Source of the DNA: a virus
UHGV virus genome: UHGV-0106476
DNA: 31,719 bases
Reading direction: 5' to 3' (one strand)
The translations under genes were made by a program, and so were the position numbers. A model generated the notes under the pieces. The model saw only the letters and a list, made by a program, of their open reading frames with translations, made no database searches and was not told where the DNA came from. Shown here one piece after another: positions 2,074 through 4,896 of the stretch (position 1 is the stretch's first letter; each line of letters starts with the position of its first letter).

Positions 2074-2370
2074 TCAGTCATTACTGATAGCGCCATAGCG
2101 TGAGCGGTAATTACGCAGGCGCGGGTCGATATATTCAGGGAATTTGTCTATTGTCTCTTTTCGCAACGGTCTCATTGCTGTTTCGTTTGTTCGGTCCTTC
2201 TCATCTTTTAACGCGAGTTGTATATCGCGTCGGTACATCCGTTCTGCTTTTGTTTCTGGTGGAAGATCGATAAACGTGTCGAAATTATTTTTGATATTTT
2301 CCAGCACCTCCGCCTTGGAGCTACCGGAGCAGTTGCGCGGGTCATCCGCACCATACAGAGGCGCTGGCAT
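2074..2370 (-). CDS. hypothetical protein (position compatible with a P22 Abc-type anti-RecBCD gene; unverified)
   Basis: 98-aa [19 protein letters not shown]... downstream of erf/ssb on the pL strand. Functional guess is positional only. Confidence 0.5.
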
Positions 2371-2393: not shown

Positions 2394-2774
2394 CTAGAAG
2401 GGAATTGAATCGTCGTATTCAGGATGATTTTGATGATTGCTACTTTGCTGCTGGCCATTTCCTGAAGCTGCAAATCCAATCTTTGCATTCAGTAATTCAA
2501 GAGTGATTGATTGACCATTTTGCCCCTGATAAACATCAACCCTGATGTTTTCTCCGGTAATTTCCACAATTCCACCTTCAACAAGAACACTACGGTAGTA
2601 ATCCGCTTGCGCTCCCGGCTTGGCAAATACAACGGCGCTGTAGTTTGTCCATTCTTTCTTTTTTGTCTGGCGATCGTAATACTGAACGCCAGCACGGATG
2701 TTGAATCCGATATTTTCCCCGGCCTGAAACTCTCTTGCGGGCTTGTTTAGTCTTACAGTAATCGAATGTGCCAT
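2394..2774 (-). CDS. phage SSB-like protein with acidic C-terminal tail
   Basis: In-frame ATG at 2772-2774 gives 126 aa (MAHSITVRLNK...) ending DDSIPF, which matches the bacterial SSB C-terminal tip DDDIPF. Start overlaps the erf stop (TAATG). Confidence 0.6.
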   Translation of the reverse strand: MAHSITVRLNKPAREFQAGENIGFNIRAGVQYYDRQTKKKEWTNYSAVVFAKPGAQADYYRSVLVEGGIVEITGENIRVDVYQGQNGQSITLELLNAKIGFAASGNGQQQSSNHQNHPEYDDSIPF

Positions 2775-3379
2775 TAAGCAGCAGCTCCTTCTAATTCGTC
2801 TCGTCTGATGTTGTAAACGTCCTGCGCTTTGTGCTGCTCCGGTGTGCCTTCGAGCATCTTCCACGCTTTGGCGAACGCCTGTTTAAGCTCTTCTACGGTG
2901 TTTTTCTGCATTGCTGCGTCAGTGAATGCTTTTAGAACCTGTTCAGGTGTAGGTGATGGTTTTGATTGCTTTGCTGCTGCGTTCTGCTGATGTTTATGCT
3001 CGTCTGTATCTGCATCTTTCGCATCATCAATGCCGAACAAACCATTGAGGCAATACTTGCGTGCATAAGAGCTTGTAGCTCCCGTAACTTGTGCAGAATC
3101 CATTCCTTTCTTGCTTTCTTCCTCTCGTGCAAGAGCGGTTGCCGTATGACTGTTTTCGCCATCGGTAATAGTTGCCGTGGCTTTCACGTAATACCGATCA
3201 CCAATCAACACAACTTCATCGCTGATTGATAAAAACAGACCATTCAGTAACGGCTTAACGCCTTCAAGAATATCTTCGCAGCTTCTGTATTTATATTTAC
3301 CGAATGAGTTGTACTGATTTTTTGGCGCGTTCAGATTCTCCTGAATAGCTGCCAGTCTTGCGTAAAATTCTTTGCTCAT
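2774..3379 (-). CDS. erf: Erf-family single-strand annealing recombinase
   Basis: 201 aa from the ATG at 3377-3379 (MSKEFYARLAAIQENLNAPKNQYNSFGKYKYRSCEDILEG...), recalled as close to P22 Erf. The ORF track's longer form begins at an upstream TTG. Confidence 0.8.
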   Translation of the reverse strand: MSKEFYARLAAIQENLNAPKNQYNSFGKYKYRSCEDILEGVKPLLNGLFLSISDEVVLIGDRYYVKATATITDGENSHTATALAREEESKKGMDSAQVTGATSSYARKYCLNGLFGIDDAKDADTDEHKHQQNAAAKQSKPSPTPEQVLKAFTDAAMQKNTVEELKQAFAKAWKMLEGTPEQHKAQDVYNIRRDELEGAAA

Positions 3380-3389
3380 ATGTTTGTTC

Positions 3390-3560
3390 TCAGAATGGAC
3401 ATTCCCCAAGGAAATAACGCTGATTTAAAACTTCGACTCTGGACAAATTAAGGCATACCCGCATTCCTTCGCGATCGCCATTATGGCGATACCAGAGAGC
3501 TTTCTGCGTGTACATGCGTCTCTGTAACTTGCTCTCCTTCACTGTGGTTGCAAGTGACAT
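3390..3560 (-). CDS. small ORF between kil and erf (Arf-like position), candidate A
   Basis: 56 codons, ATG at 3558-3560 with GGAG about 6 nt upstream. Overlaps candidate B in another frame; only one is likely real. Confidence 0.3.
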   Translation of the reverse strand: MSLATTVKESKLQRRMYTQKALWYRHNGDREGMRVCLNLSRVEVLNQRYFLGECPF

Positions 3561-3639
3561 GAATATCTCCTTCGTTACCGATTAATTCTTTCATCTGACG
3601 AATGAATTCTTCGTCTGACCAGTTATCTGTAAAACTCAT
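3481..3639 (-). CDS. small ORF between kil and erf (Arf-like position), candidate B
   Basis: 52 codons (MSFTDNWSDEEFIRQMKELIGNEG...); its ATG overlaps the kil stop (ATGA). Alternative to candidate A. Confidence 0.3.
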   Translation of the reverse strand: MSFTDNWSDEEFIRQMKELIGNEGDIHVTCNHSEGEQVTETHVHAESSLVSP

Positions 3640-3788
3640 TTCCTGCGATACCACGGAAGGTTGATAGCTGATTTCATCGCTTTATTTGCTTCAAACCACA
3701 TTTTGGAATCACCAATAAATCTGGCTATTACTGCTTTGTTCTGTGCAGCACGAAGCATCTGGTGATTGATGGCTATTTCATTGCGCAT
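3636..3788 (-). CDS. kil: Kil-like host cell-division (FtsZ) inhibitor
   Basis: 50-aa ORF MRNEIAINHQMLRAAQNKAVIARFIGDSKMWFEANKAMKSAINLPWYRRK, with the FIGD-x-KM core recalled from lambda/P22 Kil; sits directly downstream of cIII as in lambda. Confidence 0.6.
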   Translation of the reverse strand: MRNEIAINHQMLRAAQNKAVIARFIGDSKMWFEANKAMKSAINLPWYRRK

Positions 3789-3927: not shown

Positions 3928-4896
3928 TTAGTAGGTTATTTTTGTTGCGAATACTTCGCCTTTTACGATGGCTGTTATGATATTTTTAGCAACATCTTCT
4001 GATGCGCCAACCTTGATAAGGTCAGCAAGTATTTTGTTATTTACTTCTTTCCGGTGAGCTTTATCCTTTGCTCTACGCTCTTCTTCGTCCTTGATTCTTT
4101 TTTCTTCTGCTATTCTGGCTTGCTCTTTTGCTTCAGCCTCGCGCCGGATTCGTTCAGCCTCCTCCTGTGCTTTTCGGCGTTCTGCTTCAATTGCCGCCTG
4201 CTTTTCTCTTTCAGCTCGTTCTGCTGCCTCTTTTGCTTCGCGCTGTGCTCGTTGCTCGGCTTCAATGCGTTCACGCTCTGCACGTTCCGCTGCGGCCTTA
4301 GCTTCTGCTTCTCGCCTTGCTGCTGCTTCAATTTCGGCTTTTGCCTTTGCTTCGGCTTCTGCTCTGGCTTTCTCTTCAGCTTCTCTTTTTAAGCGTTCTT
4401 CATGCTCTCGCTTTTCCTGCTCCGCTTTGAGTCTTGCCTCTTCTCTTTGGCGGTCAAATTCGCGATCCATCAAAATAGCTATTTCATGGTCAGACTCAAT
4501 TTGCTTTGCGAGAGCTTCAGCTGCTGCCTTAGCTTCTTCTTCGGCTTTAATCCGTGCCTGTTCCTCCTCATAATCAGTAAGAGGCTGGCGTGCCTTGGAT
4601 TTCAGCTCATCAAGGCGATCACGCACTGTCTTGCGGTTGGCATCAATTAGCTTTGGAATTTCCTTCAGTTCAGCAACAAGGTCTTTTCCAAGACCATCGA
4701 GATATGTTTTCGTCTGCGCAACTTTATACGCCAGAGAAGCGATCTCCTTTCTGCCCTTTGCCGTTGTGATATCAGGCACAAAGGACATAACTTCACGTTC
4801 AACCTTTTGAAGGATTTCTTCAATCTGGTCGGCAGACTGAAATACAGTCATTGCATTTGCTTTTTCAATAACAACTAAATCTGTTACTTCACTCAT
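3928..4896 (-). CDS. hypothetical protein with long E/A/K/R-rich charged helical repeat region
   Basis: 322-aa ORF: globular N-terminus, about 150 aa of EAKAxAE/RREAE-type repeats, then a short C-terminal domain (NKILADLIKVGASEDVAKNIITAIVKGEVFATKITY). Confidence 0.6.
   Translation of the reverse strand: MSEVTDLVVIEKANAMTVFQSADQIEEILQKVEREVMSFVPDITTAKGRKEIASLAYKVAQTKTYLDGLGKDLVAELKEIPKLIDANRKTVRDRLDELKSKARQPLTDYEEEQARIKAEEEAKAAAEALAKQIESDHEIAILMDREFDRQREEARLKAEQEKREHEERLKREAEEKARAEAEAKAKAEIEAAARREAEAKAAAERAERERIEAEQRAQREAKEAAERAEREKQAAIEAERRKAQEEAERIRREAEAKEQARIAEEKRIKDEEERRAKDKAHRKEVNNKILADLIKVGASEDVAKNIITAIVKGEVFATKITY

Follow-up and report, generated by a model that had tools for sequence, protein, structure and literature searches.

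What is the small protein encoded directly behind the erf gene in the virus genome UHGV-0106476, and how does its DDSIPF end relate to the DDDIPF tip by which bacterial SSB recruits partner proteins? An earlier note on this 31,719-nt stretch (called the window here) had read the protein as a dedicated ssDNA-binding partner of Erf with a tail that mimics host SSB. In substance this reading largely stands, as the prediction is of an SSB with an OB fold and a conserved tip for docking partners, encoded in a recombination module, but "dedicated" and "mimic" had to be given up. The observation is real but ordinary, as the SSB type concerned (SSB-1b) is already known at the prediction level (PMC12315714).

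The interval 2394-3379 corresponds to exactly two CDSs, both on the minus strand (Table 1). They meet in a TAATG junction, in which the erf stop codon TAA (2776-2774) and the ssb start codon ATG (2774-2772) have 1 base in common, and a strong Shine-Dalgarno sequence, AAGGAG, is placed 10 nt upstream of the ssb ATG at 2774. The C-terminal end of the 126-aa protein reads ...NHQNHPEYDDSIPF, followed by the stop codon. Thus the start overlap and the DDSIPF ending described before are both confirmed. Downstream of ssb, abc2 is the final gene of the Rec module, and on the upstream side erf is flanked by a pair of short, overlapping ORFs and also by kil and cIII. The paired ORFs at the "arf" position belong to phrog_2123 and phrog_1723 and are homologous to HK97 gp42 and HK75 gp33; in the alignment with HK97 and HK75, a 2-nt difference splits the 83-aa ORF of HK97. 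The best matches of the whole window are phiv205-1 and CUS-3 (about 96% identity). The prophage is an E. coli prophage of the P22/HK97-like kind, and the locus is its early-left (PL) operon. In the recombination module of this operon, the small ORFs are followed by Erf, SSB and Abc2.

Table 1. Positions of genes, signals and protein domains in the erf-ssb region of the window
Feature	Position	Strand	Description or basis
abc2, anti-RecBCD protein 2	2074..2370	minus	Pfam PF11043 Anti-RecBCD_p2, E 1.4e-35, full length
ssb (HK97 gp40 / SSB-1b type)	2394..2774	minus	126 aa + stop
SSB C-terminal tip EYDDSIPF, aa 119-126	2397..2420	minus	matches [FWY]-D-D-x-I-P-F
SSB disordered linker, aa 104-118	2421..2465	minus	Q/N/S/G-rich; AF2 pLDDT
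SSB OB-fold domain (predicted), aa 1-103	2466..2774	minus	AF2 pLDDT 83-96
erf	2774..3379	minus	201 aa + stop; Erf-family single-strand annealing protein
Erf C-terminal three-helix domain, aa 144-201	2777..2950	minus	AF2 model
Shine-Dalgarno AAGGAG for ssb	2785..2790	minus	within erf 3' end; read from sequence
Erf disordered linker, aa 126-141	2957..3004	minus	AF2 pLDDT <50
Erf N-terminal annealing domain, aa 1-125	3005..3379	minus	Pfam ERF match + AF2 model
Two overlapping small ORFs, "arf" position upstream of erf	3390..3654	minus	3481-3654 + 3390-3560

The upstream gene was correctly named erf. Its product is a true member of the ERF family: Pfam PF04404 (ERF) matches aa 5-143 with E 2e-44 and scores 151.6 bits where 25 are required, and phrog_155 matches with E 2e-57. 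Over the first 127 residues, it shares 100% identity with HK97 Erf and 92% with P22 Erf. In the AlphaFold2 (AF2) model, the N-terminal domain is built from helices, a three-stranded sheet and a long helix (pLDDT mostly 85–95), and three further helices (145-158, 162-175 and 181-199; pLDDT 73–84) form the C-terminal domain.

The 126-aa protein is 89.8% identical to HK97 Gp40 over 100% of its length (tblastn) and matches PHROG 44, annotated as "single strand DNA binding protein", with an E-value of 3.4e-27. A chance or non-coding ORF was rejected on the conservation of the gene among its homologs and in related loci, described below. The curated sequence thresholds for bacterial-type SSB (PF00436 / TIGR00621) are not reached by the protein. 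Pfam returns no match at E<=1, the NCBIfam model TIGR00621 scores 15.3 bits, under its cut-off of 53.95, and sequence and profile searches of the PDB yield marginal SSB matches only (E 0.05–0.58).

The earlier note had proposed a structure prediction for an OB fold, and the prediction returned one with high confidence, with bacterial SSBs as nearest structural neighbours (AF2, Foldseek). The monomer model, built on 50 homologs, has a mean pLDDT of 85.4. Strands 3-8, 14-18, 21-34 and 39-51 are followed by a helix (55-63) and strands 69-74, 76-84, 87-95 and 98-103, so that a single helix interrupts the strands of the predicted beta barrel, as in the OB topology of SSBs. The top 50 Foldseek matches in the PDB are, without exception, PriB or SSBs from bacteria or mitochondria, and they reach E 3e-5 (probability 1.0) at best, with TM 0.4–0.56 and identity 10–19%. 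Moreover, hhalign aligned the family profile with E. coli SSB (probability 85%, E 6e-6) and paired Y32, W42, F50 and Y82 with W40, W54, F60 and W88 of E. coli SSB. Among 108 diverse members of the SSB family, positions W42, Y45 and F50 are aromatic in at least 99%, compared with about 72% for Y82 and about 45% for Y32. The family itself is small and discrete: when 1.84 billion representative proteins were searched with its profile, just 218 clusters emerged at E<=1e-3. From the sequence and the model, the 126-aa protein is predicted to belong genuinely to the superfamily of bacterial-type SSBs, as a highly diverged member, and we infer that it binds ssDNA. It may do so in the manner of bacterial-type SSBs, with high affinity, independently of sequence and as a homo-oligomer (tetramer or dimer).

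Compared with E. coli SSB, the predicted OB fold, the disordered linker and the [F]-D-D-x-I-P-F tip are alike, and the aromatic DNA-binding positions can be aligned, two of them (Y32 and Y82) with lower conservation in the family. The differences lie in the low identity (10–19%), in the linker (about 60 aa in E. coli SSB and about 17 in the phage protein) and at position -4 of the tip, where E. coli SSB has Asp and the phage protein has Ser. In addition, His55 at the tetramer interface of E. coli SSB aligns to an invariant Thr of the phage family. A 2025 Genome Research paper on the Rec modules of lambdoid phages gave HK97 gp40 the name "SSB-1b", because its AlphaFold 3 fold resembles that of bacterial SSB even though identity does not exceed 15%, and pointed out that experimental studies of such proteins are lacking (PMC12315714). 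It also defined a module type of anti-RecBCD + SSB + SAP, the HK75-type (Abc2+SSB+SAP). HK97 gp40 is the orthologue of the protein described here, in the same order of small ORFs, erf, gp40 and abc2, and shows no substantive difference from it. The C-terminal tip is not discussed in the main text of PMC12315714; relative to that text, the present analysis adds the tip, its conservation, and RecT and Sak4-like partners outside the lambdoid phages. HK75 gp31, "uncharacterized" in the OLD preprint, was considered as the same protein and rejected, for it proved to be an SSB-1 of the canonical type, and the annealing domain encoded upstream of it is a different one.

The slot between erf and abc2 is the place of abc1 in P22, and the protein might accordingly be taken for an analogue of P22 Abc1, a modulator of RecBCD that would not bind DNA. 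In HK620, the gene in this slot was also first annotated abc1, but it proved to be an SSB (PMC5928155), so the precedent itself turns against this explanation. BLASTP of the 126-aa protein against P22 Abc1 gave no alignment even at E<=100, and a predicted OB fold with an SSB tip points the same way. We regard an Abc1-like role as very improbable. P22 resembles the present locus in its near-identical Erf (92% in the N-terminal domain), in a homologous Erf C-terminal domain and in abc2, but differs in having in the SSB slot Abc1, which is unrelated in sequence to the 126-aa protein. Presumably, P22 Erf would rely on host SSB.

The tested system closest to this locus is the Sak4/SSB pair of HK620, which can serve as its mechanistic model. 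[quoted passage not shown] The tail is also needed to load Sak4 on SSB-coated ssDNA (Hutinet et al. 2018, PMC5928155). The two loci share the slot between annealing protein and abc2 and an acidic tail, which ends in PPF in HK620. They differ in that HK620 SSB belongs to another SSB sequence family, which has been described as not homologous to bacterial SSB (PMC12315714), and in that its partner is a RecA-like ATPase instead of Erf.

A large protein database contains 323 homologs of the 126-aa protein. An end in -PF or -PY is found in 83 of 104 full-length homologs, and in these 83 the tip positions are occupied by F (82), P (83), I (66) and the two D (59 and 68), with an aromatic residue at -7 in 66 and S at -4 in 38; the counts give the motif [FWY]-D-D-[S/D/E]-I-P-F. 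In the AF2 model, residues 107-120 have a pLDDT below 50. In tip-bearing homologs, 14 to 74 aa separate the OB domain from the final six residues, and about 17 aa do so here. Homologs share a mean pairwise identity of 0.75 over the OB domain, 0.36 over the linker and 0.68 over those six residues, so that constraint falls on the tip and spares the linker. Strong conservation of the acidic -IPF tail thus speaks, at the prediction level, for the earlier note, which a non-conserved tail would have contradicted. Among full-length representatives of 50%-identity clusters (n=116), an xPF end occurs in 60, and IPF stands within the last few residues in a further 12. The tip is absent in about a quarter of diverse family members, and several of these tail-less members still adjoin Erf, so it is not universally required.

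Is this tail a mimic of the host tip? Distant members carry tips such as NEPPMDFDSDIPF (Aeromonas phage) and IPPMDFDDDIPF (Leminorella prophage), and many end in variants of ...FDDFDDDIPF, which is nearly the E. coli SSB terminus. Furthermore, the family profile aligned to the PPMDFDDDIPF tip of HK75 gp31, a canonical SSB, with a probability of 88%. Because distant members are near-canonical (PPMDFDSDIPF, MDFDDDIPF) and the profile aligns to a canonical SSB tip, the DDSIPF tail is an ancestral canonical SSB tip that was retained, and not a newly evolved mimic.

A retained tip may still act on the host, and engagement of host SSB partners, or competition for them, is plausible. In its strongest form, this would make the protein a decoy, with a tip that titrates or redirects host SSB-interacting proteins (ExoI, RecQ, RecJ, PriA and others) and with ssDNA coating as a secondary activity. 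The tip differs from that of the host at one position (DDSIPF vs DDDIPF), this variant is conserved across enteric members, and the protein has a very short linker of about 17 aa. Interference with host SSB partners has likewise been proposed for another phage SSB-like protein, which carries an FDDDIPF tip, is a trigger of DRT10 and might displace SbcB. However, the conserved aromatic residues at SSB DNA-binding positions argue that DNA binding is under selection, tail-less family members exist, and there is no evidence for toxicity or partner specificity. We therefore consider the decoy improbable, and the effects that would follow from it, protection of recombination intermediates or disturbance of host DNA metabolism, are improbable to the same degree.

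The genomic neighbourhood was summarized at two scales. A scan of viral contigs with Erf (IMG/VR) gave 80 loci, all with near-identical Erf, which inform on linkage and not on diversity. The same ORF and abc2 lie downstream in all of them (80 of 80). A full-length SSB match is present in 78 of 80 loci, the 1-nt overlap with erf is identical in all of these (78 of 78), and 77 of the 78 end in DDSIPF or EDSIPF. The second survey covered 13 independent genomic contexts of SSB family members. Erf is immediately upstream in 8 of them (the window with its HK97 relatives, Serratia prophages, Vibrio phage K46 and five metagenomic phage contigs), RecT occurs in 2 (one with the YqaJ exonuclease and one with Gp157), and a Sak4-like AAA_24 ATPase is upstream in 1. 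In the remaining two, no annealing protein can be recognised nearby; they are L006 and Vibrio phage 1.284.A, the latter with the gene beside that of a dUTPase. Since the family also follows RecT with YqaJ, RecT with Gp157 and the Sak4-like AAA_24 ATPase, the protein is not dedicated to Erf as had been proposed. SSB-1b is a modular SSB of recombination modules, often but not exclusively paired with Erf.

These contexts also bear on whether the gene could be a general replication SSB that adjoins erf by chance, coats lagging-strand or rolling-circle ssDNA and recruits host replisome factors through its tip, and would then have no specific part in Erf recombination. Host SSB uses the canonical tip for replisome partners (PMC5872125). 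The two contexts without a recognisable annealing protein nearby would suit such a role, as would P22, where the same Erf C-terminal domain works without a phage SSB. On the other hand, in 11 of the 13 contexts an SSAP is encoded by the next gene upstream or the one beyond it, with the ssb gene directly after the SSAP or an SSAP-associated nuclease and often overlapping it by 1 nt; the ssb start is the last base of the upstream gene also after the Serratia Erf, the Sak4-like gene and YqaJ. In the window, ssb lies between erf and abc2 in the PL recombination module and not in the O/P replication module, and the published analysis likewise assigns the gp40 type to Rec modules (PMC12315714). A replication SSB placed here by chance is thus unlikely.

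If the SSB belongs to the recombination module, the part of Erf that receives its tip may be sought in the three-helix C-terminal domain. This domain is homologous in the Erfs of P22, mEp554, Vibrio K46 and Serratia, and in HK75 gp32 it is fused to a different, unrelated annealing domain beside a canonical SSB. Its settings vary: P22 Erf is followed by Abc1, with no phage SSB, mEp554 Erf by a canonical SSB, and the Vibrio K46 and Serratia Erfs by SSB-1b. According to work by Poteete, the C-terminal domain of P22 Erf is reportedly needed in vivo and dispensable for DNA binding. An SSB with an -IPF end, of host or phage, is the common partner in all settings, and for this reason the domain is a candidate partner-interaction module and could be the one that binds the tip. 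Such a function would fit the analogy with Redβ, whose C-terminal domain interacts with E. coli SSB (PMC6393309). The annealing proteins Redβ and RecT, with a separate C-terminal domain, likewise act on SSB-coated ssDNA through the SSB tip (Filsinger 2021, as cited in PMC12054835). Redβ differs in that its C-terminal domain has no detectable sequence or fold similarity to that of Erf: hhalign of the Erf alignment against Redβ gave a probability of 0.1%, and the Erf AF2 model has no match by fold in the PDB at E<=0.001. With neither a fold match nor similarity to Redβ, the contact between tip and Erf is one that we infer.

We also compared SSB tail type with Erf C-terminal domain type in 7 Erf/SSB-1b pairs. 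P22-type domains occur with -IPF tails, and for two further domain types most of the SSBs lack a tail. This co-variation is weak and is broken by L098, which has an -NIPF tail and the same Erf C-terminal domain type as L096 and L097 with their -QPQR tails. It was rejected as evidence because the sample is small and phylogenetically non-independent.

The best explanation for the locus as a whole, which we hold to be quite probable, is a diverged SSB that coats ssDNA and recruits Erf through a canonical tip, with the two proteins made by coupled translation. The gene structure, the fold, the family membership, the conservation of tip and linker and the linkage to annealing proteins were computed directly, and the process may be pictured as follows. 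The TAATG overlap and the internal Shine-Dalgarno sequence would couple the translation of ssb to that of erf. The N-terminal OB domain (aa 1-103) would bind ssDNA by the aromatic residues W42, Y45, F50 and Y82 or their equivalents, and the short disordered linker would display the conserved tip Y-D-D-S-I-P-F, presumably equivalent to the docking peptide by which E. coli SSB (...FDDDIPF) recruits partners. When Abc2-modified RecBCD or replication exposes ssDNA, the phage SSB would protect the strand, and its tip would recruit the annealing protein, probably via the three-helix C-terminal domain of Erf; the tip may also dock proteins of the host SSB interactome, possibly in competition with host SSB. 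The expected outcome would be a stimulation of Erf-mediated single-strand annealing, as shown for the HK620 Sak4/SSB pair. The activity of SSAPs is known to depend on SSB C-terminal tails, and phage SSBs are frequent in SSAP operons (PMC12054835). The principle of a phage annealing protein acting with SSB via the C-terminal tip is already established, and the locus raises no new question in this respect.

A more specialised version can be imagined, in which the enteric SSB-1b tip (Y/F-DDSIPF on an unusually short linker of about 17 residues) is tuned to bind the Erf C-terminal domain together with a subset of the host SSB interactome. We judge this rather unlikely, and equally so its alternative form, in which the tuned tip out-competes host SSB for the interactome, for example by excluding ExoI or RecJ. 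If true, the phage would have ssDNA for annealing in a pool with its own private address, shielded from host nucleases, and this would amount to a selective hijack of the SSB hub instead of a plain extra SSB.

For the family of the diverged, tip-bearing SSB, the practical meaning is direct. Thousands of copies in enterobacterial prophages are still called "hypothetical protein" and can safely be annotated as predicted SSB of the HK97 gp40 / SSB-1b type, and Erf with its cognate SSB is a candidate recombineering pair for E. coli and Salmonella. Phage SSBs are known to trigger defence systems, including Retron-Eco8, Hachiman, Hna, AbpAB and DRT10, and the abundant prophage SSB-1b is therefore a candidate trigger as well.

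Upstream of erf, the window has a gene that is broken up into two overlapping ORFs, and its counterpart in HK97 is a single 83-aa ORF, gp42. When we aligned the window with HK97 and HK75 across this region (alignment A4), the same 2 nt were absent from the window and from HK75 relative to HK97 gp42 (columns 150 and 157). The first of the two ORFs (3481-3654) has its match in the N-terminal ~46 residues of HK75 gp33, a segment that reportedly suffices to set off P2 OLD, an abortive system (2026 preprint, 10.64898/2026.07.10.737580). Just upstream of cIII in the same early-left operon lies the gene of a 322-aa protein, the centre of which is a very long predicted coiled coil rich in E, A, K and R. 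No Pfam match was found for this protein, and its PHROG matches are only groups of unknown function (phrog_1376 and phrog_21365).

Features noted in the window and in other phage loci
Feature	Locus	Coordinates	Strand
ORF upstream of erf (MSFTDNWSDEEF...)	window, within 3390-3654	3481-3654	minus
ORF overlapping it	window, within 3390-3654	3390-3560	minus
322-aa protein	window	3928-4896	minus
HK75 gp31, internal tip	L095	4910-5416	
mEp554_23, internal tip	L093	2633-3100	
P0247, P0274, P0277, internal tip			
HK75 gp32	L095	5417-6124	
P22 Erf	L091	1501-2115	
Tip-less SSB-1b: P0094, P0100, P0109, P0111 (…NFQQPR / …NFNQPQR), P0106, P0110	L096, L097, L099, L007		
SSB-1b and Sak4-like AAA_24 gene, Leminorella grimontii prophage	L004	3138-4417	

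In some phage SSBs, the DDDIPF tip is internal and is followed by an extension of ~15 residues, for example APVTLPFPRHAIHAI, SCVGLQYGKHRIYAL or AP[IV]GLQ.... Such tips are found alike in canonical SSB-1 and in SSB-1b members, two families with almost no sequence in common, and with the tip buried in this way, normal partner binding would not be expected.

A marine or metagenomic SSB-1b sub-lineage has no -IPF tip and ends in Q/N-rich sequence or PDDDWV. Its genes still lie directly 3' of Erf genes, and the C-terminal regions of these Erfs are different and shorter. Frameshifts in the repetitive coding region of the Q-rich linker could account for the tip loss, or a different docking code could be used.

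In HK75 gp32, a three-helix C-terminal domain of the P22 Erf type (...ETDKKKLIERYQ.DWQL...VQVMNIR.NELKQ.A) is joined to an N-terminal sequence which by inspection is apparently unrelated to the annealing domain of P22/HK97 Erf. If so, domain shuffling would have moved a module that presumably mediates partner interactions.

In the L. grimontii prophage, the SSB-1b gene starts at the last base of the Sak4-like gene, and its product ends in a perfect host-type tip, MDFDDDIPF. Compared with HK620, the partner class is the same (Sak4-like), whereas the SSB family is different. Because an HK620-class partner is here paired with another SSB family, SSB families and annealing-protein families are freely mixed.
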